This document shows positions 22,229 through 44,876 of a DNA stretch of 64,000 bases, in pieces (the first letter of the stretch is position 1; each line of letters begins with the position of its first letter). Origin of the DNA: Burkholderiales bacterium. Its GTDB lineage: Bacteria; Pseudomonadota; Gammaproteobacteria; Burkholderiales; Casimicrobiaceae. The stretch is taken from the NCBI GenBank assembly GCA_039807685.1, contig JBDHRR010000001.1, forward strand, positions 60,505 to 124,504, given 5' to 3'. Both the position numbers and the translations under genes were made by a program. The notes under the pieces were generated by a model. It had not been told where the DNA came from, did no database searches, and was given only the letters and a program-made list of their open reading frames with translations.

Positions 22229-22303
22229 TTCCCGACCTCCAACGTAACGGTTTCCATCATGACTCTAGTCGACGAAATCAAGCTCCTGCTAGAAGCCCCC
22301 ACC

Positions 22304-28219: not shown

Positions 28220-29260
28220 TCATCGCGGCGGCTCGGATCGCGCTGCGGTCGATCCGCGCGGCGGCCGTGTTGGCGTCGGTGCCCGCGATGCGCGGGCGCC
28301 CCCGGCGACGATTCCCAGCGTCATGACGAGGAGGGTAGCAACGACGTTGTGCAGGGTCGCCGCCACGAGCGGACGGATACCGATCGAGGTCGCGGCGCCG
28401 ATGACCACCTGCGCGGCAACGAGCACCACCAGCCACACCGCGAGTCGACGCCGCGTCGCGCGCAGGCGCCATGCCAGCAGGCCAACCGCGAGCGCAAACG
28501 CCAGCGCGACGATGCGGTGCGCAACCTGCAGTCCTTGCCGGGCGCCGGCATCCAACGCGGGCGACGCTTGCCACGGATCGAATGCCGCGACGCTCGGTCG
28601 CGCGCCGCTCATGCACAGCGGCGTGGCACAGGCGTCGATCGCGTGCCGGGCGCCGATCATCGTGCCGCTGTACGCGAGGAGGGCGACGAGCGCCAAGGCC
28701 ACGAGCGCGCTGCGGGTGATCGCGGCGCCGGCCGGCGCGCTGGCGTCGACGGCGGGCGAGCCCGCTTCCCCGCGGCGGTGCAACGCTGCCGCGACCCACC
28801 CGAGGACAGCGGTCAGGAGGAGCCCGCCGACGAGGTTGCCGAGCGTCACCAGTGGCAGGTCGTGCGGGGTATAGCGACCCAACCACGCGAGGAAGGCGGT
28901 CACGGTCACTGCCACGACGGCGGCGACGCGTCCCGAGACGGCGAGCGACGTCCAGCCGAGCACGGTCACGACGAGAACGAGAACGCCGACGGTCGTCGCG
29001 CTCACCCGGTGCAGCGCGCGGGCGCTGCGCACGCCGGGGAGATCGTCGGTCTTCGCGGTGACCGCAGCCGGCGGGTGGGACGTGGTGCCGGGAGCGGGGC
29101 TGGCGGCGATGCCCGGCGCTGCGGCGGTCGCATGCGCGGTCCGATAGCACGCCGGCCAATCGACGCAGCCCACCCCGTTCTGCGCATGACGGATGAAGGC
29201 GCTCGACGCGGTGATGCACACCGTGAGCAGCGCCGCGACGAGCGCGACGAGCCGGATCAT
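28220..29260 (-). CDS. ctaA: COX15/CtaA (heme A synthase)-family protein with altered catalytic residues
   Basis: GCVDWPAC loop, second Cys pair CATPLC, ALHR, VAHR, TLHN; the second substrate-site His appears as N (TLGNL). Confidence 0.75.
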   Translation of the reverse strand: MIRLVALVAALLTVCITASSAFIRHAQNGVGCVDWPACYRTAHATAAAPGIAASPAPGTTSHPPAAVTAKTDDLPGVRSARALHRVSATTVGVLVLVVTVLGWTSLAVSGRVAAVVAVTVTAFLAWLGRYTPHDLPLVTLGNLVGGLLLTAVLGWVAAALHRRGEAGSPAVDASAPAGAAITRSALVALALVALLAYSGTMIGARHAIDACATPLCMSGARPSVAAFDPWQASPALDAGARQGLQVAHRIVALAFALAVGLLAWRLRATRRRLAVWLVVLVAAQVVIGAATSIGIRPLVAATLHNVVATLLVMTLGIVAGGARASRAPTPTRPPRGSTAARSEPPR

Positions 29261-30693
29261 CGGGCCGGACGCGCCGCGATCACGCTCGCCAGCACCACCC
29301 ACACGAAGAGGACGCCGCCGGCGATGGCGAGCAAACCGCCCAGCCCCATCAAGCCCATGCCCGCCACCTCCTGCGTGGTGCGCAGCGTCTGCTCGGCACC
29401 CGCCACCTTGCGCTGCACGCCGTAGCCGCCGGACCACAGCAGGCCCAGGATGTGCAGCAATTGCCCACCGCCGTACAGCCACGGCTGCCAGTCGGCGAGC
29501 CGTCCGCGGACCTCACGAAAGCCCAGGCGCGGCAGGAGCGCGTACGCCAACCCCATGAGCGCCAGCGTCACGCCGACGATCGAGCCGTGGTAGTGCGCCG
29601 GAATCCGCACGTCGGAGCCCTGGATGAGGAAGCCGATCAGGCCCCCGGCCGCGAACAGCAGTAGCGAGGCAACGAGCGCCGCGCGCAGCGGTCGCGTCAC
29701 CGGGGTCGTCGCCCGCTGCCGCACCAGCGCCACCGCGAGTGCCAGCACCATCGGCAGGATGGCGAGCCCGCCGCCGAAGCGCATGAGCCAGGTCATCATC
29801 CTGCGATACTCGACCGAGACCACGGTCCAGTTGAGATAGATGAGCGGCGCGACGAATACCGAGACGAGACCGATCGCGTAGACGAGGACGACCACGCGCG
29901 GACTCAGCGGCAGCGGCGAGCCGGCAAGCGTGGCGAGCCACGCCCAGGCGACCAGCATGAGGAGCGTCCATGTGAACTGGATGACGTGCCCGGGGCCCCA
30001 GAACAGGAGTTCGTAATAGGTGAGCGCGTCGACGTCGCGCGGAACCTCGGCGAGCGACCACGCCAGCGCCAGCAGCGCAACCGCGCTCGATACCGCGGCG
30101 GCCTTGAGGCCGAAGCGCAGCGCATCGGCCCCGTCGAGGCGCAGGCTCATGCGCGCCGGCGCGACGAACGAGCGCAGGGTGAGGAGCAGGAAGCCCGCGC
30201 CCAGCACGACGAGTCCGGCGAGGAAAGTGTCATTGTCGAGGACCGGCACGTAGTTCGACATCACCGGTACGGCAGCGCCGGTGAAGGGGGCCGCCGCCAT
30301 CAGTGCGGTGCCGGCGGCGGTCACCGCGAGCGCGAGCCACCCCAGCCAGACGAAACGCGGCGACGTATCGAGTGTCCACAGCATGCCCGCCATCGACACG
30401 AACCAGACCAGCACCGACAGGTCGACGTGAACGACGAGCGCGACCCGGAAGAAATCCCCTGCCGGCACGATTCCGGCGAAGAACGGCGTGCGGGCGAGCA
30501 CCAGCAGGATCGAGAACACGCCGGCGCCGATCAGCGCCGCGACACCCAGCAGCAGCCAGCCGGTGGCGATCGAGCGCTGCGCGGTGGCGGGAATCGCGAT
30601 CTCGAAGCGGGCGTCGCGTATCCCGCGCGCGACGCCGCCGAGCACGCGCGCCGGCTCCGCCGATGAGGTGCTGCTCAGCGCGCGCTGCGGCAT
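29257..30693 (-). CDS. Divergent heme-copper-superfamily subunit I paralog lacking the His-His pair
   Basis: About 12 TM; VVHVDLSVLVW (helix II), FWGPGHVIQF (helix VI), PAHYHGSIVG (helix X); no HH in the helix VII region. Confidence 0.72.
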   Translation of the reverse strand: MPQRALSSTSSAEPARVLGGVARGIRDARFEIAIPATAQRSIATGWLLLGVAALIGAGVFSILLVLARTPFFAGIVPAGDFFRVALVVHVDLSVLVWFVSMAGMLWTLDTSPRFVWLGWLALAVTAAGTALMAAAPFTGAAVPVMSNYVPVLDNDTFLAGLVVLGAGFLLLTLRSFVAPARMSLRLDGADALRFGLKAAAVSSAVALLALAWSLAEVPRDVDALTYYELLFWGPGHVIQFTWTLLMLVAWAWLATLAGSPLPLSPRVVVLVYAIGLVSVFVAPLIYLNWTVVSVEYRRMMTWLMRFGGGLAILPMVLALAVALVRQRATTPVTRPLRAALVASLLLFAAGGLIGFLIQGSDVRIPAHYHGSIVGVTLALMGLAYALLPRLGFREVRGRLADWQPWLYGGGQLLHILGLLWSGGYGVQRKVAGAEQTLRTTQEVAGMGLMGLGGLLAIAGGVLFVWVVLASVIAARPAR

Positions 30694-30744
30694 GCTGGTG
30701 CCCTTCCCGCCGGCGGGCGCGGGGATGAATGTCGTTTCATCGTT

Positions 30745-31251
30745 TCATCGGATGACGACGCCGCCTTGATCGGGCACGAAGTCGATGAGGACGACCTGTC
30801 CGGGGGCGAGCTTGATCCGACGCTCCGCCTCGTGATTGAAGCCCTTGACGCGAACGCTGTCGTTCACCTGCACGCGCAGGAGATGCTCGCCGGCGGGAAT
30901 CGGCTGCCGGCGATAGCCGCTCGCCGCGCCGTCGCGACGCAGCCCTGCCGGCGCGAACGTCTCGTCCAGCACCAGCTTGCCGTCGAGATCGACGCGCACG
31001 TGCACCGGCGAACGCTCGCGCGGGCAGTCCATCTGCGCGCGCAGTTGTGGCGACATCTTGGCGAGCTCCTCGGGACTGCGCGGACGGCAGTCGGTGGTGA
31101 GCTGGCCGGGCGCGCGGAACGACAGCCGCAGGAGCGCCTGATCGGGCGGCAGGTGCTGGTACGCGGGCGCCGTCGAGAAATAGCCGATGAAAGCAGCGAA
31201 CAGGATGTAGAGGATCGCCTGTCCGCCGTAGCGCAACGCCGAGTTAGCCAT
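30745..31251 (-). CDS. Hypothetical membrane-anchored protein with two Cys
   Basis: Single N-terminal TM (QAILYILFAAFIGYF), TTDCRPR and MDCPRER, beta-rich C-terminus; overlaps the upstream gene's stop. Confidence 0.75.
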   Translation of the reverse strand: MANSALRYGGQAILYILFAAFIGYFSTAPAYQHLPPDQALLRLSFRAPGQLTTDCRPRSPEELAKMSPQLRAQMDCPRERSPVHVRVDLDGKLVLDETFAPAGLRRDGAASGYRRQPIPAGEHLLRVQVNDSVRVKGFNHEAERRIKLAPGQVVLIDFVPDQGGVVIR

Positions 31252-32836
31252 GGATACTGTCTCCGAGCGGGTGGCGGGTCGTCCCGCCGTCTGCCTTTCT
31301 TGTCTCGCCCGCGGGGAGCCGCGCGCGGAACGATTCGATGTCGCTGTCGAGTGCGGCGCCCTGTTCGCGGCCGGCATGGATCACCGCGAGCCGCCTCCGA
31401 TCGACGCTGCGGCGCAGCCACGGCGGACGCAGGCCGGCGATGCGCTCGAGCGTCCATCGTACCCCGAAGCGGTATTCGCAATCGCCCATCGCGCACGTTG
31501 CCACCACGACCCCGGCCGCGCCCGCGCGCAAGCCGTAGTCGACGAAGGTCGGCGGCAGCATGCCGGTACACGGCAGTCCGATGACGATCGTGCCGGGTTG
31601 CCTGGTCGGCTGCGCACCGTGGTGACAGGCGAAGACCAGGAGTGAGCCGCTCGCGTCGGGTCGGCCGAATGCAGTGTCGATCGCTGCGCGCACCGTATCC
31701 ACCGTGTAGTACGGCAGGTCGATGCCACTCACCAAGGCGGTGACCGAACGGAACGGCACCGCCGACGGGCAGGCGCCCGCGCAGATCCCGCAGGAGGCAC
31801 AGCGATCGGCGTCGACCACCGCGATCTCGCCCCTGCCGCTCGGATGCGGCGCCATGGCGATCGCGGCGTAGGGGCAATCCTCGAAGCAGCGCCGGCAGCC
31901 GTTGCAATACAGCGGGACGACCACCGCCGGCGCCGGTCGCGGCGTGCGACCGAGCCACGGCAGCACCGCGAGCAGCAGCGTCAGGCCTACGCTCGCGATC
32001 CAGACCGCCTCCGGCGAAGTGGTGTAGATGGCCGGCAACGGCGCGAGATAGAACCAGTCGATCGGCAGGTCGGTAGGGATTCGCGCGAGGTCGGCGGGCG
32101 GCCCCGACACCGCCGGTACGACGAGCGACAGCGCGACGAGCGCGGCGAGACTCGCCAGCGCCACGCGCCGCGTGGTGCCGGTCTGTGGGCGGGTGAGCCT
32201 TTGCACGTGTGCCCACATGGTAAGCAGCAGCACGAGCGGCAGCCCGATGTGCAGGAAGGCAACCAGCGAGAACAGGCGGTCGGACACCGCGCTCTCGGCG
32301 ATGAAATTGCGCACCAGCGCCGGCCCGAAGCCGGGAAGGACGCCGAACCATTCGGTGGTGGCGGTGGCGACGAACTGCGCGAGCGTGTCCCACACCATCC
32401 AGTAGCCGACCACACCGGCGGCGACCGCGAGCCAGAGCGTGGGGATGCCGCTCACCCAGCTGTACCAGCGAAAGCCGCGGAAGCGCCCGAGCAGCAATTC
32501 GCGCAGGAGATGCACGATGATCACCACCACGAAGGCGTCCGACGCGTAGCGGTGGAGGCTGCGCATCAGCCCGCCGGCCCACCGCTGGCCGTGCGTGAGT
32601 GTCTCGACCGAGGCGTACGCACCGACGACGCTGGTGTCGTAGAAGATGTACAGGTAACCGCCGGTCAACGCGATCAGCCAGAAGAGGTAGAACCCGAGTC
32701 CCCCGAGCTGGCGCAATGGATTGTCGTCGACGCCGCAGAGGCGGTCGAGGGCATGCTCGCCGGCGCGCCACGCGCGCGCCGCCGCGGCGTCGGCCGCGAC
32801 CGCGGCATCGGGAGTCGAAGACAGGTTGAACGCCAT
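31244..32836 (-). CDS. Cytochrome b - 2x[4Fe-4S] - FlpD/MvhD-type Fe-S fusion protein
   Basis: Four heme His (SLHRY, IVHLLR, FLHIG, WAHVQ); IDWFY; CNGCRRCFEDCP and CASCGICAGACP; FACHHG, LPCTGMLPP, TCAMGDCEY. Confidence 0.85.
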   Translation of the reverse strand: MAFNLSSTPDAAVAADAAAARAWRAGEHALDRLCGVDDNPLRQLGGLGFYLFWLIALTGGYLYIFYDTSVVGAYASVETLTHGQRWAGGLMRSLHRYASDAFVVVIIVHLLRELLLGRFRGFRWYSWVSGIPTLWLAVAAGVVGYWMVWDTLAQFVATATTEWFGVLPGFGPALVRNFIAESAVSDRLFSLVAFLHIGLPLVLLLTMWAHVQRLTRPQTGTTRRVALASLAALVALSLVVPAVSGPPADLARIPTDLPIDWFYLAPLPAIYTTSPEAVWIASVGLTLLLAVLPWLGRTPRPAPAVVVPLYCNGCRRCFEDCPYAAIAMAPHPSGRGEIAVVDADRCASCGICAGACPSAVPFRSVTALVSGIDLPYYTVDTVRAAIDTAFGRPDASGSLLVFACHHGAQPTRQPGTIVIGLPCTGMLPPTFVDYGLRAGAAGVVVATCAMGDCEYRFGVRWTLERIAGLRPPWLRRSVDRRRLAVIHAGREQGAALDSDIESFRARLPAGETRKADGGTTRHPLGDSIHG

Positions 32837-32879
32837 GCGCAGACGGCCGCCAGCCGGGAACCACTGCCGCTGCCGCCGC

Positions 32880-33731
32880 TCAGGCGCGGCGCGTCCGCCG
32901 CAACTCGCGCAGCGTGAACCAGGCGATTGCCCCGAGCGTGGTCAAGCCGGCGAAGATCTCGAAGAACAGCGAATAGTTGAGACGGTAGCCGCCGCCTTGC
33001 GGATCGTACACGGTACAGTACAGGATCACCTTGTCCCAGACGTTGCCCAGTGTGAGTTCGCGCGAGGCCTGCCCCGAGCGCAATTCCTTGAGCGGTTGCA
33101 CGAGCATCGGCAGGTCGAAATTCTCGCCGTAGACCTGGCGGTAGATGACGCCTTCGGCATCGACGATGGTGACCTGCGTGACGTGATCGAAGCCCTTGGC
33201 GGTGGCCTCGTAGACGAAGCCCAGGTTGGCGGTGAGTGCCTCGACCTGCGTCGGATCGGGGCTCAGGAAATGCCAGCCGGGCTCATCGATGCGGTTCTGG
33301 CGCTTGAAGGCGGCCATTGCCGCCGGCGTGTCAAAGGGTTGATTGAAGCCGATCGACACCACGGTGAAGGCGTCGTCGCCCAAGGCCCGGCGCGCCTCGC
33401 GCACGGCCTGCGCGAGGAACTGCGTGGCGACCGGACAGGCCTGGAAGCAGCCGGTGTACACGAGGCTGACCAGCAGGGGTCGTCCCTGGTAGTCGCGCAG
33501 GCGAACGTCCTTGCCGTTGCTGTCGCGCAGGCGGATGTCGGCAACCGGCCGGCCGATCGCCGCCTGGCTCGTCGTGACGGCGCGCTGGTAATCGGGCGCC
33601 CGGGGTGCCTTGGCGCTGTCTTCTGCCGTCGCCCGCGCCGGCAGCGCGACCATGCAGGCGGCGGCGCCGGCCGCGAGCGAGGTGATCAGGATGCGGGCGA
33701 GCGGTGCGCGGCGGGAGCTGCGACTCGGCAC
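32880..33731 (-). CDS. SCO-family copper chaperone with C-terminal membrane extension
   Basis: YTGCFQACP (CxxxC) and GFDHVTQ His; C-terminal TM FFEIFAGLTTLGAIAWF. Confidence 0.88.
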   Translation of the reverse strand: MPSRSSRRAPLARILITSLAAGAAACMVALPARATAEDSAKAPRAPDYQRAVTTSQAAIGRPVADIRLRDSNGKDVRLRDYQGRPLLVSLVYTGCFQACPVATQFLAQAVREARRALGDDAFTVVSIGFNQPFDTPAAMAAFKRQNRIDEPGWHFLSPDPTQVEALTANLGFVYEATAKGFDHVTQVTIVDAEGVIYRQVYGENFDLPMLVQPLKELRSGQASRELTLGNVWDKVILYCTVYDPQGGGYRLNYSLFFEIFAGLTTLGAIAWFTLRELRRTRRA

Positions 33732-33735
33732 GGCG

Positions 33736-34602
33736 TCAGGCCCCGAGCGAGGACCTCATCCAGCCGTCGGCGATGGTTCCCATGAGGAGCAGCGAGAGCT
33801 GGACGAGCGAGGCGTGGAAGCTTGCCAGCGCATTGGCCCGATTCGGCGTGCGGGCCAGCAGCCAGGCACGCCACACGAAGAGCGCACTGCCGGTCGCTGC
33901 ACATGCGAGGTAGAGCCAACCCGGGCCGAAGAATGCAAGCGCGAGCGAACAGCCGACCATGACGAGCGCGTGCCAGAAGATCGCCCAGGCCGCGAAGCGG
34001 TCGCCCTTGACCACCGGCAGCATCGGCACCCCGACGCTCGCGTAGTCGTCGCGGCAGACGATCGCGAGACTCCAGAAGTGCGGCGGCGTCCACAGGAACA
34101 GCACGAGGGCGAGGACGAGCGCCTCCGGCGAAAGCTGCGGGGAGACCGCCGCCGCGCCGGCCAGCACCGCGAAGCTGCCGGCCAGCCCTCCGATCACGAT
34201 GTTCCACGCGCTGCGACGCTTGAGCCAGACGGTGTACACGATCGCGTAGACGAAGGCGCCCAGGAACGTGTACAGCGCCGCGGCCGCGTTGGTGGCGAGC
34301 CACGCCGCCGCCACCGCGATTCCGGTCAGCGCGACGATGAGTACCAGCCAGCCGCGATGGTGCCGCATGTGCCCGCTCACGAACGGGCGGCGACGCGTCC
34401 GCGTCATCCGCGCGTCGAGATCGACCTCGTAGAACTGGTTGAAGGCACCTGCGGCCGCCGACGACAGCAGCACGGCAAGCGTCAGGACCACGCCTTGCCA
34501 GGGGGCGAGGGTGCTGCCGGGCGACACCATCAGCCCGGCGACCGCGGTGAGCGCGATCGCCACGCCGATGCGCAGCTTGAAGAGATTGAGCAGCGCCTTC
34601 AT
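33736..34602 (-). CDS. ctaB: Protoheme IX farnesyltransferase (heme o synthase)
   Basis: LFKLRIG, NQFYEVDLDARMTRTRRRP, YTVWLKRR, LWTPPHFWSLA, DYASVGVPMLP. Confidence 0.93.
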   Translation of the reverse strand: MKALLNLFKLRIGVAIALTAVAGLMVSPGSTLAPWQGVVLTLAVLLSSAAAGAFNQFYEVDLDARMTRTRRRPFVSGHMRHHRGWLVLIVALTGIAVAAAWLATNAAAALYTFLGAFVYAIVYTVWLKRRSAWNIVIGGLAGSFAVLAGAAAVSPQLSPEALVLALVLFLWTPPHFWSLAIVCRDDYASVGVPMLPVVKGDRFAAWAIFWHALVMVGCSLALAFFGPGWLYLACAATGSALFVWRAWLLARTPNRANALASFHASLVQLSLLLMGTIADGWMRSSLGA

Positions 34603-34678
34603 GCCGCGCTGCCAGCGCCGGACCGCGGAGCGCGGCCCGGCGCCGTCGACGGCTGCGAGAAGAGCAGGGCGCCCACGC

Positions 34679-36385
34679 CTAGCTCAGACCCCAGACCGTC
34701 GACAGGTACTTCCAGTTGACGAAGTAGTACAGCACGAAGGCGACCAGGAACACCATCGCGAACACGAAGGTACCCGGAACGCCCCAGCCGCCGCCGTGGC
34801 CGCCATCCTCGACGAGCGAGACCTCCACCGGCAGGCGCAGCGGCGTCACCTTGGTCGAGTAGGCACCCGAATCCAGTCGCTTGCCGAAGAGGATGGTGCC
34901 GACCGTCACGGTGATGTACATCACGCCGCCGATGACCGCGATGATGCCGCCGATCGCGAAGATGGCGATCATGAGCAGTGCCGTTCCCGGGAACTCGTAG
35001 GGGAATGCGGCGCCGGCGAAGGTGATGTCCCAGCTGCGACGCGGCACGCCGAGCGTGCCGGCGCCCATCATGGCGAGCGTGAACACACCCATGCCGAGAC
35101 CGAAGACGTACGGCTGCAGCTTCGCCCAACCCGGGAGGATCAGCTCGCGATTGAAGAGCGTGGGCAGCAGGAAGTACGTCAGCGCCATGAAGGCGAGCGT
35201 GGTACCGATCACCACCGTGGCGTGGAAGTGCCCCGGCACGTAGATCGTGTTGTGGATGATCATGTTGAGCTGCTCGGTGCCCATCATCACGCCCGAGATG
35301 CCGCCCAGGAAGCCGAAGCCGATGAGCGAGATGAACATCCCCGAGAACACCGGATTGCTCCACGGCGCCTTGCGCAGCCACTCGAAGAGCCCCTTCGTGT
35401 AACCCTTCGCCCGCTGCGCGGCTTCGATCGCGCCCGGCACGGTGAGGCCGTGCAGCATCGACGCCAGCACCGCGAGGTACATCGCGTAGCTCGTGTTGAA
35501 CACCTTCCACTCGGTGCCCACCGCCGGGTCGGCCAGGATGTGGTGCGCCGACGCGAGTTGCAGGAACAGGATGTAGAGGAGGAACGCGGAGCGGCTCACC
35601 CGCTCGGACATCGGCTTCGCGCCGAAGACGATGGCGGCGATCGCATACCACACCGCGATGTGCGCCGACACGTTGATCTGCTGCGACGAGTGACCGAACG
35701 CCCACCAGATCACGCGGTACATCGCCGGATCGATGTGGCTGATGTATCCCGCCGACCACAGGAAGGTGGGGATGAGGATGATCGCACCCGAGGCGATCGT
35801 GAAGATCGCGATGATGCAGGCGGTGATCGCGCCGAAGGTGACGAGCGGAACCGAGCCCTCGTAGGTCTTCTCGGACTTGGCGATGACGAGCGTACCCAGG
35901 AACACGAAGCAGCCGATGAGCGCGCCGACCGCGAACAGGATGAGGCCCAGGTAGAACGCCGGAATCGCCGGCAGCGGCACGTAGGACGTCATCATCACCG
36001 TCGCGTTGCCGGTGAAGATCGCGACGTTGAAGGTGATGGTGCCGATCACCATCAGCGCCCAGGCGAGCCAGGCGAGTCGCGGGGTGGCGATCCGGCAGCG
36101 CAGCAACGTCGACGAGCAGAAATAGAGGATCGCGATCTCGAAGAAGATGATCCAGACGACCAGCATGTCGAGACCGTGCGCGGTCAGGTACATGTAGAAG
36201 TTGTCGGCGTCGAGCAGGTGGATCGCCTGCCAGCGCGTGAGCGTGATCAGCAGGGCGAGAACTCCGCCGATCAGCAGCGCGACGACGGCGGCGACGGCGT
36301 TGGCCTTGATGAGCAACTCGGCCGACTTGTGGAATTGCAGCCCCGTGCGGGGGCAGATGCGGTACTGCGGGACGGCGGTGGCCAT
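34679..36385 (-). CDS. B-family-derived heme-copper subunit I; probable eNOR-type nitric oxide reductase catalytic subunit
   Basis: All six His present (LTAHG; GHSSQQ; SAHHI; GHFH). Helix VI reads H-S-S-Q-Q (35678-35692) instead of HPxxY, so there is no His-Tyr cross-link. Confidence 0.8.
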   Translation of the reverse strand: MATAVPQYRICPRTGLQFHKSAELLIKANAVAAVVALLIGGVLALLITLTRWQAIHLLDADNFYMYLTAHGLDMLVVWIIFFEIAILYFCSSTLLRCRIATPRLAWLAWALMVIGTITFNVAIFTGNATVMMTSYVPLPAIPAFYLGLILFAVGALIGCFVFLGTLVIAKSEKTYEGSVPLVTFGAITACIIAIFTIASGAIILIPTFLWSAGYISHIDPAMYRVIWWAFGHSSQQINVSAHIAVWYAIAAIVFGAKPMSERVSRSAFLLYILFLQLASAHHILADPAVGTEWKVFNTSYAMYLAVLASMLHGLTVPGAIEAAQRAKGYTKGLFEWLRKAPWSNPVFSGMFISLIGFGFLGGISGVMMGTEQLNMIIHNTIYVPGHFHATVVIGTTLAFMALTYFLLPTLFNRELILPGWAKLQPYVFGLGMGVFTLAMMGAGTLGVPRRSWDITFAGAAFPYEFPGTALLMIAIFAIGGIIAVIGGVMYITVTVGTILFGKRLDSGAYSTKVTPLRLPVEVSLVEDGGHGGGWGVPGTFVFAMVFLVAFVLYYFVNWKYLSTVWGLS

Positions 36386-36396
36386 GGTTCCCCCGA

Positions 36397-36936
36397 TTAC
36401 TTGACGTAGAGCCGCGAGACCATCTTGTGATGGCCGATGCCGCAGAATTCGTTGCAGACGATCGCGTACTGGCCCGAGCGATTGGGCGTGACCGTCACCA
36501 CGTGCTGGTAGCCGGGAAGGACCTGGATGTTGATGTTCTCAGGCTGCAGCGAGAATCCGTGCTGGTAATCCATCGAGCTCAGGTTGAGGCGATAGCTCTT
36601 GCCCTTCTCGAGTTCGAGGATCGGCCACCAGTCCCACAGGCGCGCGATGAGGTAGATGTCGCTGCCCGCGGGCGGCGCCACCACCGGCACCTTGCCCTCG
36701 CCCTCGGTGCGCACGGTGTACTTGTCGACCATGTCCTGCGCGGCCTTGGCGAAGAGTTCGGGCTTGACGCGGTACGTTTCCGATGACAGGTTCTGCTTAC
36801 CGAACACGTGCCAGTACGGCATCATGAAGAACATGATCATGCACCACACGAAGGCGATGACGATCCAGATGATCTCGATCTTGTCGACCGGTTGCTTCCA
36901 CCAGATGCGTTGCGGCGGGGGCAGTATGGCGCTCAC
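36397..36936 (-). CDS. CuA-containing subunit II (single TM, ba3-type architecture)
   Basis: DYQHGF...CNEFCGIGHHKM CuA motif; one N-terminal TM. Confidence 0.92.
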   Translation of the reverse strand: MSAILPPPQRIWWKQPVDKIEIIWIVIAFVWCMIMFFMMPYWHVFGKQNLSSETYRVKPELFAKAAQDMVDKYTVRTEGEGKVPVVAPPAGSDIYLIARLWDWWPILELEKGKSYRLNLSSMDYQHGFSLQPENINIQVLPGYQHVVTVTPNRSGQYAIVCNEFCGIGHHKMVSRLYVK

Positions 36937-36964
36937 GGCGTGTCTCCTGACGGATTGCGTTCGG

Positions 36965-37144
36965 TCACTTGGCGAGCGGCGTCACCGGCACCGTTGCGAT
37001 TTCCATGACGCCCCAGAGGATATAGAGCACGGTGGGAATCACGACGCCCAGGAACAGCAGCAGGAACGGGTTGTCGAGGATCTGCTGCATCACGGGGATG
37101 CGCTCTTCTTGGTTTTCGGGCTGCGATCGAGTATGGTCAGCCAT
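36965..37144 (-). CDS. Small single-TM subunit (subunit IIa-like), 59 aa
   Basis: MADHTRSQPENQEERIPVMQQILDNPFLLLFLGVVIPTVLYILWGVMEIATVP; RBS GAAGGGGGAG; first gene of the operon. Confidence 0.75.
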   Translation of the reverse strand: MADHTRSQPENQEERIPVMQQILDNPFLLLFLGVVIPTVLYILWGVMEIATVPVTPLAK

Positions 37145-37227
37145 GGCGGCTCCCCCTTCCTGTCGATGAAATTGGCAACGAAATCGGCAACACCGGGCAT
37201 CATGGTTGGCGGGGGCCTGCATCCGCC

Positions 37228-37241
37228 TTGACCTGCATCAA
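37228..37241. promoter_or_regulatory. FNR/DNR/NnrR-type box
   Basis: TTGAC-CTGC-ATCAA, one mismatch to TTGAT-N4-ATCAA, about 90 bp upstream of the eNOR operon start in the divergent intergenic region. Confidence 0.75.
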
Positions 37242-37452
37242 AGGTAACCCGGTTGCGCCGCCACCGCAATACGGAATCCAACACGTTGCAACGCGCGTCG
37301 AGCGCCATTCGGCCGCATCGCACGGTGCATTCTTGCAATGATGCGGTATTGCCGCTAGTTTCCACATCTTTGCCATTTCGCTCGCGACGCGATGCGTCGC
37401 CCGCGGCCGGTGCCCGCGCGGGGCCGGGCGCACGGCATCACGGAGGATCACG

Positions 37453-39372
37453 TTGCTCAAGATAGTCCAAGGCTTCCTGCAGTGGTTTTTCCTGCGGATG
37501 GAGGCGATCGGCAACCGGGTATTCGGCGATCGGCTGAACCCGATGTACTACCTGGGCGCGACGAGCTACTGGATGTTCTGGATCGTCGTCGCCAGCGGCC
37601 TGTACGTCTACGTTTTCTACGAGACCGGGGTCGACAAGACATACGCCTCGATGGAGGCGATCACGCACGGGCAGTGGTTCGCCGGCGGCATCATGCGCAG
37701 CGTGCACCGCTACGCGTCCGACGCGATGGTGCTGACCATGCTGCTGCACATGCTGCGGCATTTCGCCTTCGACCGCTATCGCAGCTTCCGCGCCTTCTCG
37801 TGGGTCACCGGCGTGATCGTGCTGTGGCTCGTCTACGCCTCGGGCGTGAACGGCTTCATGCTGCCCTGGGACAAGCTCGCGCAGTTCGTGGTGATCGGCA
37901 CCACCGAATGGCTCGATTCGCTGCCGGTGTTCAACGGCATCCTGACGCGCAATTTCATCACCCCCGACGCGATCACCGACCGGCTTTTCTCGCTCCTGTC
38001 GTTCCTGCACATCGGCATTCCGCTGGTGGTGATGCTCGCGCTGTGGATCCACACGCAGCGCGTGCCGCGCGCGTCGCAGATTCCGCCTCGCCGTCTCGCC
38101 TTCGGACTGCTCGCGATGCTGCTCGTGCTGTCGCTCGTGAAGCCGGTGGTGAGCCAGGCGCCCGCCGATTTCAACACGGTGCCGATGCGGCTCGACTTCG
38201 ACTGGTTCTATCTCACCGTCTATCCGCTCATCTACGCCTGGGATCCGCTCAAGCTGTGGATCCTCTGTGCCGGCGTCACCGTACTGCTGCTGGCGTTGCC
38301 GTGGCTGCCACCGGCGCGCAGCGGCAAGGGCCGCGCGTATCACCTGACGGCGCACCCGGGTCGCCAGGGCGCACCGGTGCGCGTCGGCGAGACGCTGCTC
38401 GACGCGGGGCTGCGCGCGGGCATCGCGCTGCCTTACGAATGCCGCTCTGGCGGCTGCGGCGTGTGCAAGGCGACGATGATCGGCGGCGAGGTCGAGATGT
38501 CGGGCTACCAGCCCTCCGCGCTCTCCGCCGAGGAGCGCAGCGCGGGTCGCATCCTGCTGTGCTGCGCCCGCGCGCTGTCCGATGTCGAGTTCGAATACGA
38601 GGCGGATGCGGCCGCCCGCGGCACGAAGATCGAGACCTACGAGACGCGCGTCGAGCGACTGGCGCCGCTCGCCCACGACGTGATGCTCGTCGCGCTGCGC
38701 CTGCCCGAGGGACGCAAGATCGAGTTCGAGGCCGGCCAGTACGTGAACGTCGTGCTCGACGGCGGCGCACGACGCAGCTACTCGTTCACGACGCCGTCGG
38801 GCGCCACCGACCTCATCGAACTGCACGTGCGGCTGATGCCTGGCGGGTTGTTCACCTCGCGCGTCTTCGAATCGATGAAGGTGGGCGATCCCATCACCAT
38901 CGAGGGCCCGGTGGGGTCGTTCGTGCTGCACGAGCCGAGCGAGAAGCCGCTCATCTTCGTCGCCGGCGCGACCGGCTTCGCGCCGGTCAAGAGTCTCCTC
39001 GAACAGGCTTTCCACATGGGGATCCAGCGGCCGCTCTACCTGTACTGGGGCGTGCGCCGTCGCCGCGATCTCTACCTCACCGAGTTGCCGGAACGCTGGG
39101 CGCGCGAGCACCCCAATTTCCACTTCGTGCCCGTGCTCTCGGAGGCGGCCCCCGAGGACGACTGGCACGGCCGCACGGGCCTCGTCCACGAGGCGATCCT
39201 CGCCGATTTCCCGAACCTGTCGGGCTTTGCGGTCTACGCCTGCGGTTCGGTGCGCATGGTCGCCGCGGCGCGGCCGGCGTTCGTCACGCAGGGCCTGCAC
39301 GAGGATGCGTGCTACTCCGACGCGTTCATCCCCGCCGGTGGCGCCGAGCCGGGAGTCGCGCCGCCCGCGTAA
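37453..39372 (+). CDS. Cytochrome b - [2Fe-2S] ferredoxin - FAD/NAD(P)H reductase fusion
   Basis: Heme His SVHRY, LLHML, FLHIG, WIHTQ; FDWFY; CRSGGCGVC...LLCC; RSYS (FAD); AGATGFAP and YACG (NAD). RBS GGAGGA before TTG. Confidence 0.88.
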   Translation: MLKIVQGFLQWFFLRMEAIGNRVFGDRLNPMYYLGATSYWMFWIVVASGLYVYVFYETGVDKTYASMEAITHGQWFAGGIMRSVHRYASDAMVLTMLLHMLRHFAFDRYRSFRAFSWVTGVIVLWLVYASGVNGFMLPWDKLAQFVVIGTTEWLDSLPVFNGILTRNFITPDAITDRLFSLLSFLHIGIPLVVMLALWIHTQRVPRASQIPPRRLAFGLLAMLLVLSLVKPVVSQAPADFNTVPMRLDFDWFYLTVYPLIYAWDPLKLWILCAGVTVLLLALPWLPPARSGKGRAYHLTAHPGRQGAPVRVGETLLDAGLRAGIALPYECRSGGCGVCKATMIGGEVEMSGYQPSALSAEERSAGRILLCCARALSDVEFEYEADAAARGTKIETYETRVERLAPLAHDVMLVALRLPEGRKIEFEAGQYVNVVLDGGARRSYSFTTPSGATDLIELHVRLMPGGLFTSRVFESMKVGDPITIEGPVGSFVLHEPSEKPLIFVAGATGFAPVKSLLEQAFHMGIQRPLYLYWGVRRRRDLYLTELPERWAREHPNFHFVPVLSEAAPEDDWHGRTGLVHEAILADFPNLSGFAVYACGSVRMVAAARPAFVTQGLHEDACYSDAFIPAGGAEPGVAPPA

Positions 39373-39382: not shown

Positions 39383-40117
39383 CTATCGGGGTTCGACGCT
39401 GCACAGGTACGGCATCCAGGGGTGCAGCGCCGGTATCGCGGTGACGAGCCACGGTCCGGTGAGCGTGAGCGTCGCCCCGGCGAGCAGCACGACGCCCGCA
39501 CCGCGGCGCAGCGCGGGGCGCGAACCGAGTGCCGCGAGCCGGCGCGCACCGAACGCCACGGCGAGCATCGCCGGCGCGGTGCCGAGGCCGAACATCAGCA
39601 TCGTGGCCGCGGCGCGCAGCGCGTCGAGTTGCAGCGCGGCCAGGGTCAGCACCGTGTAGACGAAGCCGCAGGGCATGAATCCCCAGACCATGCCGAAGCC
39701 GATCGCGCGCGGCAGGCTCGTCACCGGCAGGAGCTTGCGGCCGAGCGGCGCGAGCTTGGGCCAGAGGTGGCGGCCGACGAAGCCGGCGCCGACGTCGCGC
39801 AGGCGACCGAAGGCGACGAGAGCCGCGACGAGCAGTGCGAGCGCGGCAATGACCCGCAGCGTGCGGCGCACCGCCTCGGCAGCGAGCGCGTCGGCAAGCG
39901 CGCCGAGCGCACCACCCACGACGAGCGCAACGAGCGCGTAGGCGAGCACGCGGCCGACCTGGTAGCCGATGAGGAAGTCGGCGCGGGGCCGTCCATTCGC
40001 CCCGCGCGCGGTCGCGAGTCCGAGTGCTGCGGAAATCCCGCCGCACATCACGAGGCAGTGTCCGCCCGCGGCGAGCCCCAGCAGGAGTGCCGCGAGGAGC
40101 GTGATGTTGCCGGTCAT
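39383..40117 (-). CDS. cbb3-associated DsbD_2/TauE-like membrane protein
   Basis: GGHCLVMCGG, GYQVGRVLAY, WGFMPCGFVY, FGLGTAPAM; end of the cco operon. Confidence 0.82.
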   Translation of the reverse strand: MTGNITLLAALLLGLAAGGHCLVMCGGISAALGLATARGANGRPRADFLIGYQVGRVLAYALVALVVGGALGALADALAAEAVRRTLRVIAALALLVAALVAFGRLRDVGAGFVGRHLWPKLAPLGRKLLPVTSLPRAIGFGMVWGFMPCGFVYTVLTLAALQLDALRAAATMLMFGLGTAPAMLAVAFGARRLAALGSRPALRRGAGVVLLAGATLTLTGPWLVTAIPALHPWMPYLCSVEPR

Positions 40118-40317
40118 GGCGTCTCGCCCGGTGTCACCTGCCAGCGTGCCGCGGGTGGCACGGGTGGCGCCGCCAGCGGGTCGACGTCGGTGAGCGGCAG
40201 CAGGCCCGGCGTTTCCATGTCGTCGAACTGCCCGTGGTCGACCGCCCAGAAGAGGACGAAGCCGGCGCCGATGAGGACCACGATCGAGACGCCGATGAGC
40301 ACGACGAGAATGCTCAC
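40114..40317 (-). CDS. ccoS: cbb3 oxidase maturation protein CcoS/FixS
   Basis: GTG start; MSILVVLIGVSIVV...FWAVDHGQFDDMETP. Confidence 0.88.
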   Translation of the reverse strand: MSILVVLIGVSIVVLIGAGFVLFWAVDHGQFDDMETPGLLPLTDVDPLAAPPVPPAARWQVTPGETP

Positions 40318-40378
40318 CGGACGACCCTCCGCGCGATCGCGCTGCGGGGCAATCCGCCCTCGGGACGGCCCGTCGGGC

Positions 40379-42832
40379 TCATGCTGCCACCTGCGCCGGC
40401 GTTGGTGCCGGTTGCACGGTGTGGCGCCGCTCGCGTCCGATGCGCAGCGCATTGAGCACCACGATGAGCGAGCTCGCCGACATGCCGAGTGCCGCAAGCC
40501 ACGGCGGCACGAAGCCGAGCGCGGCGAGCGGGACCGCGGAAAGGTTGTAGAACAGCGCCCAGCGCTGGTTGACGAGGAGCGTCGCCAGCGTGCGCTTCGC
40601 CAGTGCGCAGGTGTCGGCGAGCGCGCGCGGATCGTCGCGGGCGAGCACGACGTCGCTTGCCGTCTGCGCGATCGCCGCTCCGGAGGCCATCGCCACCCCG
40701 ACGTCGGCGCCGGCGAGCACCGGGGCGTCGTTGATCCCATCACCCACGGCGACGACGCGCGCGCCACCTGTCCGCCGTTCGCGCAGCCAGACGAGCTTGC
40801 CGGCGGGATCGGTGCCCGCACGCCACGTCGCGATGCCGAGCGCGGCGGCGGTTGCGGCGACCTTGGACGGCGCGTCGCCACTCACCAGCGCGACCTCGAT
40901 CCCCGCTGCACGCAACCGGTCGACGGCGTCGCGCGCGCCTTCACGGAGGCGCTCGCGCACGTGCAGCACGGCGATCACTCCCGCCTCGTCGGCGAGCACG
41001 ACGGCGTCGTCGCCGTGTACTGCGGCGTCGCGCGCGGCGGGGTCGCGCAGCGCGAAGCCGGCGTGGCCGAGCCGCAGGCGGCGCGCGCCGATGCACCCCG
41101 CGACCCCGGCACCGGCCTCGGTGATGGCATCGTCGACGTGCAGCGGCGACGCGGGCACCGCGGCGGCAATCGCCCGCGATACCGGGTGCGTGCTGGTACG
41201 CGCGAGTGCTGCGGCCAGCGCCAGTGCCTCGTCACGCGCGATGCCGCCGAAGACCTCGACGCGGTCGAGTTCGAGCCACGGCTCGGTGAGCGTCCCCGTC
41301 TTGTCGAACATCACGTGGGTCGCGCCGGCGAGCGCTTCCAGCGCATCGGGCCGAACCACCAGCACGCCGCGCGCGGCGAGGACCGCGAGCGCACGCGTCA
41401 CCGCTGCCGGGGCGGCGAGCGCGAAGGCGCACGGACACGAGACGACGAGCACGGCGACGGTCGCTGCAAACGCGCGCGTCGGATCGACGATGCTCCAGCC
41501 GAGTGCGGTCAAGGCGGCGAGCGTGAGGACGCGGGCGACGAATCGCGCGGCGGCGCGTTCGCCGGCCAGCGCGATGCGCGGCCGCTCGCTTGCCGCGCGG
41601 GAGGCGAGGGCGACGATCGAGGACAGGACGGTGTCGGCACCGGTGCGCTCGACGCGCACGGTCGCCGCCACGTCGACGACCACGCTGCCCGCGCACAGCG
41701 CGTCGCCGGTGCGCTTGACGACTGGCGTCGACTCGCCGGTGAGCAGCGACTCGTCGACGCGACAGGGCGCGCTCTCCAGCATGCCGTCGGCCGGGACGAG
41801 CGTGCCGACTGCGACCAGCACGCGATCGTCGGGGACGAGTTCGAATGCTCCCACGCGGGTCGTCGTGCCGTCGGCGGCAAGACGCAGCGCGACCTGCGGC
41901 GCCGAGCGCGCCAGCGCGTCGGTGAGATCGCCGGCACGATGGCGCGCCCGCATCTCGAGATAGCGCCCGACCAGCAGGAAGAAGACGAACATGCTCACCG
42001 ATTCGAAGTACACCTCGCCGCTGCCGCGCAGCACTTCGATCACGCTGCCGGCGTAGATGAGCGCAATGGCGAGTGCGACCGGCACGTCCATGCCGAGGCG
42101 ACGCGCGCGCAGGAGGCGCAGCGCGCCGGCAAAGAACGGCGCGCCGGCGTAGATCACCACCGGCGTGGCGACCGCGAAGCCCAGCCATCGGAAAAGTTCG
42201 CGGGCCGCCGGATCGAGATCGTCGAAGGCGCCGAAGTAGAGTGCGCTTGCATACATCATCGCCTGCATGGCGCCGAAGCCGGCCACCGCCAGGCGCTTCA
42301 TGGCCGAGCGCGATTCGCGCCCGCGGGCGTCGTCGAGCGCCGCGGCGTCGAGCGGCAGCGCCCGGTAACCCAGGCGCGCGAAGGCGTCGACGATCGCCGG
42401 CAGCGCCACGCGGGCGGGATCGAAGCTGATGCGCGCGCGCCGCGCGCTGCCGTTGACGGCCACCTGCGCCACGCCCGGCAGCGTCCCCACGCCGTGCTCG
42501 ATCAACCACGAGCACGCCGCGCAGCGCAGGCCGTCGACGACGACCACGGTTTGCGCGCTGCCATCGGGCAGTGCCTGCACGAGATGGCGCGCGAGTTCGG
42601 GGCGGGCGAAGGCCTGCGCCGCACGCGCGGTCTCGTCGAGATCGGGCGCTCGCGGCGCAACGCGCTCGCGCAGGCGGTAGTAGTCGGCGAGTCCGAGTGT
42701 GCCGATCCATTCGGCGGCGGCACGACAGCCGGGACAGCACACCGCGTGCGCTTCGCCGGCGACGTGCGCGAGCGGCGGGTCGTGCGGCAGCGGTTCACCG
42801 CAGTGCCAGCAACCGTGGCGGTCGCTGCTCAT
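40379..42832 (-). CDS. ccoI: cbb3-associated copper P1B-ATPase CcoI/FixI
   Basis: N-terminal CWHC...CCPGC, CAAC HMA domain, [21 protein letters not shown]. Confidence 0.92.
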   Translation of the reverse strand: MSSDRHGCWHCGEPLPHDPPLAHVAGEAHAVCCPGCRAAAEWIGTLGLADYYRLRERVAPRAPDLDETARAAQAFARPELARHLVQALPDGSAQTVVVVDGLRCAACSWLIEHGVGTLPGVAQVAVNGSARRARISFDPARVALPAIVDAFARLGYRALPLDAAALDDARGRESRSAMKRLAVAGFGAMQAMMYASALYFGAFDDLDPAARELFRWLGFAVATPVVIYAGAPFFAGALRLLRARRLGMDVPVALAIALIYAGSVIEVLRGSGEVYFESVSMFVFFLLVGRYLEMRARHRAGDLTDALARSAPQVALRLAADGTTTRVGAFELVPDDRVLVAVGTLVPADGMLESAPCRVDESLLTGESTPVVKRTGDALCAGSVVVDVAATVRVERTGADTVLSSIVALASRAASERPRIALAGERAAARFVARVLTLAALTALGWSIVDPTRAFAATVAVLVVSCPCAFALAAPAAVTRALAVLAARGVLVVRPDALEALAGATHVMFDKTGTLTEPWLELDRVEVFGGIARDEALALAAALARTSTHPVSRAIAAAVPASPLHVDDAITEAGAGVAGCIGARRLRLGHAGFALRDPAARDAAVHGDDAVVLADEAGVIAVLHVRERLREGARDAVDRLRAAGIEVALVSGDAPSKVAATAAALGIATWRAGTDPAGKLVWLRERRTGGARVVAVGDGINDAPVLAGADVGVAMASGAAIAQTASDVVLARDDPRALADTCALAKRTLATLLVNQRWALFYNLSAVPLAALGFVPPWLAALGMSASSLIVVLNALRIGRERRHTVQPAPTPAQVAA

Positions 42833-42860
42833 CGTCGTGGCGGGCCGGCGAGCACGGCCG

Positions 42861-43103
42861 TCAGCGCGGCGTGGCGGCCCCACCTTCGGTGACGGGCGGT
42901 GCCGGCGCTCGCTCGCGGGGGACCTTGAAGACGGTGGCGCTACCTACGGCAACGTCGGTGTCGGCGTGACGGACCGCGACCACGATCAACCAGATGCAAC
43001 CGGCGAGCGAGGCGGCGAGGATCGCCGCCCCGATCCAGATCAGCGGCGGGATGTTGCGCAGGGTGCGTGCCGGCGCGACGGCGCGCTCATCGTCGCGCGG
43101 CAT
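42861..43103 (-). CDS. Short FixH/CcoH-like single-TM protein
   Basis: Position between ccoP and ccoI; PPLIWIGAAILAASLAGCIWLIVVAVRHAD resembles the FixH N-terminal TM. Confidence 0.55.
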   Translation of the reverse strand: MPRDDERAVAPARTLRNIPPLIWIGAAILAASLAGCIWLIVVAVRHADTDVAVGSATVFKVPRERAPAPPVTEGGAATPR

Positions 43104-43998: not shown

Positions 43999-44153
43999 GG
44001 CGTTTCTTCGCTCTCGTCTTCCATCGGCAACCGCGCCAGGGCATCGAACGTCGGCCGGTGATACGGCAGCCACGCCCAGATCCAGATGCCGATGAAGACG
44101 AGCATCAGGATCACGGTGATGACACCGGCCAGGTGTCCCCAGAGCGGATTCAT
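43995..44153 (-). CDS. ccoQ: cbb3 oxidase subunit IV (52 aa)
   Basis: Below the ORF-track cutoff; manual translation [52 protein letters not shown]; 4-nt overlaps on both sides. Confidence 0.88.
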
Positions 44154-44866: not shown

Positions 44867-44876
44867 CGCTTGTTCC

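Follow-up and report, generated by a model that had tools for sequence, protein, structure and literature searches.

A characterized relative of the system considered here is the eNOR-type nitric oxide (NO) reductase of Rhodothermus marinus (Hemp & Gennis, 2008; Murali et al., 2024, PMC11214002). The enzyme combines a B-family-derived heme-copper oxidoreductase (HCO) subunit I, in which Gln takes the place of the cross-linked active-site Tyr, with a CuA-containing subunit II, and its operon includes genes for heme A biosynthesis. We analyzed a 64,000-nucleotide stretch (the window) on contig C128 of a Burkholderiales metagenome-assembled genome (MAG; 3.8 Mb, about 69% G+C; nearest named relatives Zeimonas, Lautropia and 'Burkholderiaceae bacterium'). 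Positions 28220-39372 encode an eNOR together with four accessory proteins: two cytochrome b fusions, one with a ferredoxin-reductase tail (cytbFNR) and one with an Fe-S tail (cytbFeS), an anchored 168-residue protein (g168) and a paralog of subunit I (cox1b). In Proteobacteria these four accessory genes clearly belong functionally to eNOR. The R. marinus enzyme was purified as two subunits and was active with ascorbate/tetramethyl-p-phenylenediamine (TMPD), and the excerpts of PMC11214002 mention neither accessory cytochromes b nor g168 or cox1b.

The same set has been listed for Ferrigenium straubiae KS (bioRxiv 10.64898/2026.01.22.701106), so that the set is not undescribed, as an earlier note on this DNA had suggested it might be. 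The Ferrigenium operon encodes eNOR subunits II and I, heme O synthase, Sco1, 'Cytbc1CCC-like 1' (cytochrome b-FeS-FAD-NAD), a hypothetical protein, the subunit I paralog and 'Cytbc1CCC-like 2' (cytochrome b-Fe-S/FlpD). The preprint names the paralog 'eNOR scaffold protein' and proposes a quinol:NAD+ role, with no functional test. The window differs in three respects: the reductase fusion is transcribed divergently from the other side of an FNR box, the operon includes ctaA, and a PerM gene is lacking. Already known are the eNOR family, the presence of ctaA and ctaB in its operons and the accessory set in Ferrigenium, and the window is a further member of a described operon type. New here are the breadth of the association (four classes, near-perfect even where the genes are unlinked), fusions of cytbFeS with g168, independent origins of twin cytochromes b, the ligands of cox1b and the apparent absence of the set from non-proteobacterial loci.

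The cluster comprises ten genes, backed by third-position GC content and by Pfam and NCBIfam matches, and one regulatory box:

36965..37144, minus strand: small subunit of 59 residues with a single transmembrane helix (open reading frame with the ribosome-binding site GGAAGGGGGAG and one hydrophobic helix)
36397..36936, minus strand: eNOR subunit II, one transmembrane helix and a cupredoxin domain with CuA (PF00116, TIGR02866)
34679..36385, minus strand: eNOR subunit I, 568 residues (PF00115, 220 bits; FGHSSQQ)
33736..34602, minus strand: ctaB/CyoE, heme O synthase (TIGR01473, 263.5 bits against a cut-off of 210)
32880..33731, minus strand: SCO1/SenC-type copper chaperone, sco (PF02630, 42 bits; CFQAC, i.e., CxxxC)
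31244..32836, minus strand: cytbFeS, cytochrome b with two [4Fe-4S] clusters and an FlpD/MvhD domain (Pfam and NCBIfam matches)
30745..31251, minus strand: g168, anchored 168-residue protein (no Pfam or NCBIfam match)
29257..30693, minus strand: cox1b, subunit I paralog (PF00115, 55.7 bits)
28220..29260, minus strand: ctaA, heme A synthase of the CtaA/COX15 family (PF02628, 81.7 bits)
37453..39372, plus strand: cytbFNR, cytochrome b with Fer2, FAD_binding_6 and NAD_binding_1 domains (Pfam), 308 nt from the small-subunit gene
37228..37241, no strand assigned: CRP/FNR-family box TTGACCTGCATCAA in the divergent intergenic region, centered about 90 bp upstream of the small-subunit ATG

All ten genes of the earlier note's map, nine tightly packed on the minus strand and one divergent cytochrome b-ferredoxin-reductase gene across the FNR box, were recovered where it had placed them. 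Neighbouring minus-strand genes are separated by -8 to 76 nt. The note had reported several overlapping stop and start codons; overlaps do exist, but in two pairs only (cox1b/ctaA by 4 nt, as ATGA, and cytbFeS/g168 by 8 nt). Its statement that the cluster lacks a c-type cytochrome, a Rieske protein and norQ/norD also stands, as the ten proteins contain no CxxCH motif and no Rieske, AAA+ or VWA (NorQ/NorD-like) domain; no genome-wide search for NorQ/NorD was made, and a cbb3 operon with c-type cytochromes (ccoP, ccoO) begins at 43087, 3.7 kb to the right of the cluster.

The closest solved structure to subunit I is the B-family ba3 oxidase of T. thermophilus (E 1e-48, versus 1e-6 for the A family). 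The Gln of its FGHSSQQ motif aligns with Tyr237 of ba3, so that H-S-S-Q-Q stands in place of the H-P-x-x-Y of oxygen reductases, and a Gln replacing the cross-linked active-site Tyr is diagnostic for eNOR (PMC8756737). The motif HS(S/T)QQIN, with QQ, is present in 97 of 98 subunit I homologs from three proteobacterial classes. Five of the six canonical His residues (H70, H232, H281, H282, H386 and H388) are invariant in these homologs and the sixth, H232, is His in 97 of the 98. Subunit II has a complete CuA motif (H-x34-C-x-E-x-C-x3-H-x2-M), and the small subunit, whose conserved gene immediately precedes that of subunit II in almost every homologous locus (identity 41-100%), matches subunit IIa of ba3 oxidases in position and topology. 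With every eNOR sequence feature that was looked for in place (the six His, the Gln instead of Tyr, the CuA subunit II and the B-family affinity), the enzyme is assigned to the B-family-derived, CuA-containing eNORs, in agreement with the earlier note. The genome carries nirS, and nirK was not found in it; an NO reductase is therefore needed. For the predicted NO reductase activity, FeB and heme As in both heme sites, the context consists of nirS, the ctaA and ctaB genes of the operon and the FNR/DNR-type box.

Distribution of the accessory genes in Proteobacteria

One genome per GTDB species was scanned with an alignment pattern of cytbFNR, and at least 594 genomes were found to encode a relative. 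The cytochrome b genes occur across four proteobacterial classes, whereas the Ferrigenium preprint regarded them as unusual, genus-specific markers. Synteny was read in the 80 best loci. In essentially all of those with enough flank, cytbFNR adjoins sco, cytbFeS, g168, cox1b and the genes for the small subunit and both large eNOR subunits, in most cases together with ctaB, in one of two layouts: divergent, as in the window, or co-directional in the order small-II-I-ctaB-sco-cytbFNR-g168-cytbFeS-cox1b(-ctaA).

Co-occurrence was counted in two samples of 401 genomes each (Fisher p about 1e-57 to 1e-60 for the two tables). Within Burkholderiales, eNOR and cytbFNR are each present in 49 genomes; both occur together in 48, each occurs alone in one, and 351 have neither (p 6e-60). 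Only full-length matches (query residues about 1-625) were counted as cytbFNR, because ordinary Fer2-FAD-NAD reductases match the tail and a threshold of E<=1e-60 is useless. The positives of this sample are spread over 17 families and 32 of 167 genera, and include two of the six species of the window's own genus. This patchiness argues that the genes were gained and lost together, and softens the problem of shared ancestry.

Across Pseudomonadota, 50 genomes carry eNOR and 53 carry cytbFeS (both in 49, eNOR only in 1, cytbFeS only in 4 and neither in 347). The positives belong to Magnetococcales and Mariprofundaceae. The four genomes with cytbFeS only are three incomplete MAGs (77-89% complete) and one highly fragmented MAG (96% complete, about 730 contigs), all from eNOR-bearing genera. 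Among the 53 cytbFeS-positive genomes g168 is present in 52 and cox1b in 51, even when the genes lie 0.2-0.9 Mb from eNOR. One 2.3-Mb contig, for example, carries eNOR at 0.12 Mb, whereas its cox1b gene lies at 0.88 Mb and its cytbFeS-g168 pair at 1.05 Mb. The neighbours of unlinked cox1b and cytbFeS-g168 in a Magnetococcales genome (fabG, fabF, and genes for a methyltransferase, a B12-radical SAM enzyme and an aminotransferase) give no functional hint. The earlier note had tied the four genes to eNOR; the survey of synteny and co-occurrence speaks strongly for that link, and the accessory genes decisively do not occur mainly away from eNOR.

The composition of the set varies among lineages. 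We found cytbFNR only in Burkholderiales and a few Gammaproteobacteria, and it is absent from the Magnetococcales, Mariprofundaceae and Alphaproteobacteria loci that we examined. Magnetococcales encode one cytbFeS and Mariprofundaceae two tandem cytbFeS paralogs. A Rhodospirillales MAG has the order small-II-I-sco-cytbFeS-g168, followed by genes for hemerythrin, ApbE and NosR and by nirS, and a plasmid of Defluviimonas sp. SAOS-178_SWC (NZ_CP156080) has small-II-I-cyoE-SCO-cytbFeS-g168-hemerythrin. Besides this Defluviimonas strain and Ferrigenium straubiae, Zeimonas arvi CC-CFT501 and Pelomicrobium sp. G1 are cultured carriers. The hemerythrin-family gene directly follows g168 in both clusters (L155:10776-11177 in Rhodospirillales and L159:15535-15939 in Defluviimonas), and its product could be an NO/O2-sensing or iron-handling partner. 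The window itself contains a hemerythrin-family gene at 22229-22771 (plus strand), 5.4 kb to the left of the cluster, beside a CHASE3 histidine kinase and two response regulators.

The accessory proteins and the path of electrons

We tentatively lean towards a reading in which the accessory proteins form a dedicated transmembrane electron module that serves the biogenesis of eNOR rather than its turnover. The architecture of the proteins bears on this reading and on its alternatives.

Both cytochrome b domains contain four heme-ligating His, as H-x13-H pairs in helices B and D (H85/H99 and H186/H200 in cytbFNR, H95/H109 and H196/H210 in cytbFeS), and these residues are invariant (84 homologs for cytbFeS). 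Helices E-F, with a PEWY-like (I/F)DWFY loop (IDWFY in cytbFeS), are kept in both. Six transmembrane segments are predicted for each fusion, a topology that places the fused Fe-S and reductase tails in the cytoplasm, the compartment in which such domains have to lie. The two domains are 49% identical to each other, and a very long branch separates them from the canonical bc1 cytochrome b of the same genome (on contig C62). The four-His di-heme helices A-D, the E-F helices with their loop and a dimer-forming ancestry are shared with bc1/b6f cytochromes b. Unlike these, neither fusion matches PF00032 (the C-terminal domain), partners of the Rieske and c1/f kinds are missing (the cluster encodes neither a Rieske nor a CxxCH protein), and cytoplasmic Fe-S or ferredoxin-reductase domains follow helix F. 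Twin cytochrome b genes arose at least twice independently, in Mariprofundaceae by a duplication of their own. Since bc1-type cytochromes b work as dimers and twin genes evolved repeatedly, a cytbFNR-cytbFeS heterodimer is plausible, and reasonable to propose.

In cytbFeS, the eight Cys of two [4Fe-4S] clusters are invariant in the 84 homologs, and C404, C423, C448 and C453 of the MvhD-like domain (PF02662, 44 bits) are kept in at least 82 of them. Matches in the PDB were to cytochrome b6 (E about 1e-14), HdrA and MvhD. An MvhD-like [2Fe-2S] domain also occurs in QmoB and HdrA2. Genes for HdrA-type proteins or hydrogenases, with which MvhD/FlpD domains are associated, were found neither in the cluster nor at the homologous loci that we inspected. 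NarI, QmoC, HdrE-HdrC and DsrMK likewise use two b hemes to link a site on the periplasmic side with cytoplasmic Fe-S centers; in contrast to these, the fold here is of the unrelated bc1 type and no catalytic cytoplasmic partner is encoded. Some Magnetococcales matches to cytbFeS contain an in-frame TGA, which was considered as a selenocysteine codon and rejected, being the natural stop of a shorter protein.

The tail of cytbFNR has the domain order Fer2-FAD_binding_6-NAD_binding_1 (PF00111, PF00970, PF00175) and matches BenC/AntC/MmoC-like NCBIfam models with 190-197 bits. The best of these, NF040810 (BenC, 197 bits), falls below its equivalog cut-off, and the tail is best classed as a relative of BenC, not BenC itself. 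The logic of cytbFNR resembles that of NOX, FRE, STEAP and MsrQ-Fre, in which NAD(P)H reduces a flavin, then two stacked b hemes, then an acceptor outside. The likeness is functional only; cytbFNR does not match PF01794 (the ferric-reductase domain) and has an additional [2Fe-2S] center.

One alternative is a bc1-independent supply branch dedicated to eNOR turnover, in which electrons from NAD(P)H (via the reductase tail) or from reduced ferredoxin (via the Fe-S tail) would pass through the b hemes to the CuA or low-spin heme of eNOR, directly or via g168. Such a branch would amount to a membrane NAD(P)H:NO oxidoreductase supercomplex, comparable to the NOX, FRE and MsrQ-Fre conduits. The domain order (NAD-FAD-[2Fe-2S]-two hemes b, with cytoplasmic tails), the lack of cytochrome c and Rieske genes in the cluster, the strict co-occurrence with a CuA enzyme and the FNR-type box common to the eNOR operon and cytbFNR are consistent with it; conservation of the DWFY loop suggests a functional site facing the periplasm, and all four proteins were detected in the proteome of denitrifying Ferrigenium (bioRxiv 10.64898/2026.01.22.701106). 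However, the canonical bc1 cytochrome b is kept in 76 of 79 eNOR-positive genomes and a cbb3 operon with c-type cytochromes adjoins the cluster, so the usual path of electrons to CuA exists. The universal member, cytbFeS, has no nucleotide-binding domain, and cytbFNR has the restricted distribution described above. Expression in Ferrigenium is 20- to 200-fold under that of eNOR, eNOR purifies with two subunits, and cox1b would be left without a role. We regard the supply branch as possible but doubtful.

Flow in the reverse direction was proposed for Ferrigenium (bioRxiv 10.64898/2026.01.22.701106): the fusions would act as quinol:NAD+ (or quinol:ferredoxin) oxidoreductases, energized by NO reduction within a supercomplex. 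The Qo-like DWFY motif is conserved, and carriers are enriched in Fe(II)-oxidizing and magnetotactic autotrophs (Mariprofundaceae, Magnetococcales, Gallionellaceae). On thermodynamic grounds, however, inward electron transfer from quinol (about +0.1 V) to NAD+ (-0.32 V) would be uphill by about 0.4 V plus the membrane potential, and the immediate high-potential acceptor (CuA or heme a, about +0.25 V) does not cover this cost. Ordinary heterotrophs of the Burkholderiales account for many of the carriers, and most clades hold only the Fe-S type of fusion. We consider this reading highly improbable, and favour outward flow, from NAD(P)H or Fe-S donors to the periplasmic side, over inward flow from quinol to NAD+.

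The AlphaFold2 model of g168 (predicted local distance difference test score, pLDDT, 94) consists of an N-terminal transmembrane helix and a beta-sandwich. A Foldseek search against the PDB gave no match at E<0.01, the listed matches being to TssJ, CARDB and CBM-type beta-sandwiches. The possibility that g168 is a degenerate cupredoxin/subunit II or a Rieske protein was rejected: hhalign against subunit II gave a probability of 0.1%, Foldseek offered no support and the metal ligand motifs are lacking. The protein has just two Cys, lost jointly in 6 of 79 homologs, a pattern that fits a disulfide, and one invariant His. The family comprises about 1500 clusters at 50% identity and has no Pfam model. 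In-frame fusions were seen in several independent members, which follow either cytbFeS (about 690 residues in all) or a cytochrome b that has lost its Fe-S tail (453-465 residues), for example in Rubrivivax. The tail-less fusions of Rubrivivax MAGs (loci L035 and L046, proteins P0274 and P0311) occur in lineages that also hold cytbFNR, which suggests that one cytoplasmic redox tail per cytochrome b dimer is enough. In 52 of the 53 cytbFeS-positive genomes g168 lies directly beside cytbFeS. The fusions, this constant adjacency and the 8-nt overlap in the window identify g168 as a subunit of the cytochrome b complex, and the fusions in particular place its N-terminus inside and its beta-sandwich in the periplasm. 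In the complex with cytbFeS, g168 would provide the part that is anchored in the membrane and exposed to the periplasm.

The cox1b protein has the 12-transmembrane HCO fold (AlphaFold2 model with pLDDT 87; TM-score about 0.7 to subunit I of ba3, aa3 and cbb3 oxidases). A profile search of cox1b against PDB sequences returned no matches. Its closest paralog in the genome is eNOR subunit I (25% identity, E 2e-14). H89, H236, Q239, H367, H369, H414, R428 and K429 are invariant in 64 homologs, so that the low-spin heme keeps both of its axial His and the high-spin heme its proximal His, and the R-K pair that binds the propionates is retained along with the helix VI His. A Gln at position +3 from the helix VI His is common to cox1b and eNOR, and His414 is newly gained. 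Of the metal site of catalytic HCOs, only H236 remains: helix VII reads T-W-L-M-R-F-G-G-G, with no His in the 64 homologs. Conservation of this kind marks cox1b as a maintained heme protein that lacks the FeB site, rather than as a copy in decay. Two labels carried by cox1b (29257-30693) and its homologs mislead surveys of respiratory genes, and inflate oxidase counts in metagenome surveys. Besides the cox1b of their eNOR cluster, most Mariprofundaceae encode a second, unlinked paralog (38-44% identity to the query; for example G069:C26:16957-18285 and G225:C109:3557-4882).

The conserved sites of cox1b invite the alternative that cytbFeS (with or without cytbFNR), g168 and cox1b form an enzyme complex of their own. 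The b hemes would then deliver electrons to the heme pair of cox1b, whose HCO site without a non-heme metal (His236, Gln239, His414) would perform chemistry on, or close to, the substrate or product of eNOR; it could, for example, bind or turn over NO or provide O2 for heme A synthesis. Strong purifying selection at both heme sites, the additional invariant His414 and Gln239 and the second paralog in Mariprofundaceae argue in this direction, as do the persistence of the cytbFeS-g168-cox1b trio where it is unlinked from eNOR and the rank of cox1b as the most abundant accessory protein in Ferrigenium (bioRxiv 10.64898/2026.01.22.701106). Yet cox1b has no subunit II-like partner, since g168 is not cupredoxin-like and tracks cytbFeS rather than cox1b. 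At the two alphaproteobacterial loci, cytbFeS-g168 lies beside eNOR with no cox1b within the examined stretch, and we found no precedent for a catalytic HCO without a non-heme metal. A separate enzyme is, in our estimation, improbable. A combined form, in which both fusions, g168 and cox1b make up a previously unrecognized, Rieske-less 'half-bc' complex that moves electrons of cytoplasmic NAD(P)H or Fe-S donors outward and docks on eNOR or cox1b, is in our judgement unlikely. It would equip Pseudomonadota with an NAD(P)H:NO oxidoreductase supercomplex that needs neither bc1 nor cytochrome c, or else with an HCO enzyme that relies on hemes alone and has a chemistry of its own.

A possible role in eNOR biogenesis

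The leaning towards biogenesis follows from several observations. The accessory genes lie after the structural genes and among assembly genes, between sco and ctaA. Transcript levels in Ferrigenium (transcripts per million) reach about 10^4 for eNOR I and II (about 13000 for eNOR II), as against about 630 (ctaB), 350 (sco), 620 (cytbFNR), 430 (g168 homolog), 300 (cox1b) and 50-100 (cytbFeS), and the accessory proteins are 12- to 200-fold below eNOR (bioRxiv 10.64898/2026.01.22.701106). The accessory genes are thus transcribed at the level of ctaB and sco, at least 20-fold below the structural genes. The retention of a canonical bc1 cytochrome b in 76 of 79 eNOR-positive genomes, and the cbb3 and c-type cytochromes next to the cluster, lean the same way. 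The purified R. marinus eNOR has only two subunits, and a paralog that binds heme but lacks FeB fits a scaffold more readily than a donor chain.

In the biogenesis reading, the two paralogous Rieske-less cytochromes b would pair as a dimer, here the cytbFNR-cytbFeS heterodimer, with g168 as its periplasmic anchored subunit. The cytoplasmic tails would accept electrons from NAD(P)H (FAD, then [2Fe-2S]) or from Fe-S partners (through the two [4Fe-4S] and the [2Fe-2S] clusters), and the two b hemes would pass them across the membrane to the periplasmic side. There the electrons may support synthesis of hemes O and A by CtaB and CtaA, or keep Fe and Cu centers reduced. By retaining its heme sites and losing the FeB site, cox1b could serve as a heme-holding assembly scaffold. 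An FNR/DNR-type regulator would turn on the whole unit at low O2 or with NO.

Ferrous heme is the substrate form for heme O synthase, and the yeast heme A synthase Cox15 depends on a ferredoxin and a ferredoxin reductase. Provision of ferrous heme for heme O synthase, of electrons for heme A synthase, and delivery of Fe(II) or Cu(I) are all plausible candidates for the reductive step. The module could cover needs met elsewhere by NorQ/NorD (FeB insertion in cNOR) and by Yah1/Arh1-Cox15 (heme A). It differs from NorQ/NorD in having no AAA+/VWA homology, and from Yah1/Arh1 in that the ferredoxin and its reductase are fused to a membrane cytochrome b.

Several points weigh against biogenesis. In the literature searched we found no functional description of the four accessory proteins, and low expression does not exclude a catalytic donor role. 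Many Burkholderiales with an aa3 oxidase and without eNOR make heme A without the module, and of the 80 related loci just 18 include a ctaA gene. The pairing of the two cytochromes b, the direction in which electrons move and the use of cox1b as a scaffold are inferences from architecture. The co-occurrence counts are inflated by shared ancestry, against which the patchiness argues for repeated joint gain or loss.

A further point comes from Thermus thermophilus and Thermomicrobium roseum, whose megaplasmids carry clear eNOR relatives (H-G-A-Q-Q). We identified no cytbFeS, g168, cox1b or SCO gene within 10 kb of these loci, and cytbFeS and cox1b occur nowhere else on the megaplasmids that carry them (plasmid records only). 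The module thus cannot be a universal requirement of eNOR maturation, and the idea that it is a general eNOR property is not supported; it belongs to the HSSQQ clade of Proteobacteria and is not demonstrably common to eNORs at large. The Thermus relative (L157:9998-11683, on the SNM6-6 megaplasmid) has H-F-K in helix X, with Lys in place of the low-spin heme His, a variant mentioned by Murali et al. (PMC11214002). Its neighbours encode Rrf2-type and MarR-type regulators, a multicopper oxidase, cytochrome P460 and a cytochrome c, with no SCO, ctaB or cytochrome b module nearby.

The question matters because eNOR is among the commonest environmental NO reductases (wastewater Accumulibacter, Fe(II)-oxidizing Gallionellaceae and Zetaproteobacteria, magnetotactic bacteria) and produces N2O directly. 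Should the building or feeding of eNOR depend on the four genes, they would be better genomic markers of functional eNOR than subunit I alone, and this dependence would account for the loading of heme As and Fe into a B-type scaffold in the absence of NorQD. It may also point to the bacterial electron donor for heme A synthesis, which has long been missing, or to a new path by which electrons of NAD(P)H reach a respiratory NO reductase. The cluster turns the building and feeding of B-type NO reductases into a concrete, testable question.

Control region, flanks and other genes of the genome

A TTGA-N6-TCAA box recurs at homologous loci, in 28 of the 33 with the divergent layout and in 16 of the 28 with the co-directional one. 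Its conservation in the divergent promoter region fits control of the cluster by an FNR/DNR-type regulator. A search for intrinsic terminators and sigma-70 promoters between 27800 and 39700 gave matches no commoner than in shuffled sequence.

The left flank encodes a SARP/STAND regulator and the right flank a DsbD_2 protein followed by ccoS, ccoI and ccoPON, both unrelated to the module. The right-hand cbb3 island (39383-46523) consists of the DsbD_2-like gene (39383-40117), ccoS, ccoI (40379-42883) and ccoP/ccoO/ccoN (43087-46460), and a perfect FNR box, TTGATTCCGATCAA, lies beside it at 46510-46523. Within the cluster, the SCO protein has an N-terminal anchor and, from transmembrane prediction, an additional C-terminal helix. 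The CtaA of the cluster is very divergent, with 31-69% identity among orthologs and no PDB sequence match at E<=1. The genome has a further CtaA-like gene (C128:15175-15804), and contig C118 encodes an aa3 oxidase together with a separate ctaB.

The genome also encodes an atypical HCO subunit I of 562 residues (contig C1:9106-10800, minus strand; PF00115, 168 bits). It contains the NorB-like motif HYWVEGVWE as well as GNAHHYFW and SHAHLALFG, and has no NCBIfam NorB match. This protein may represent another of the new NO reductase families of Murali et al. (nNOR or cNOR-related), in which case the genome would have two NO reductases.

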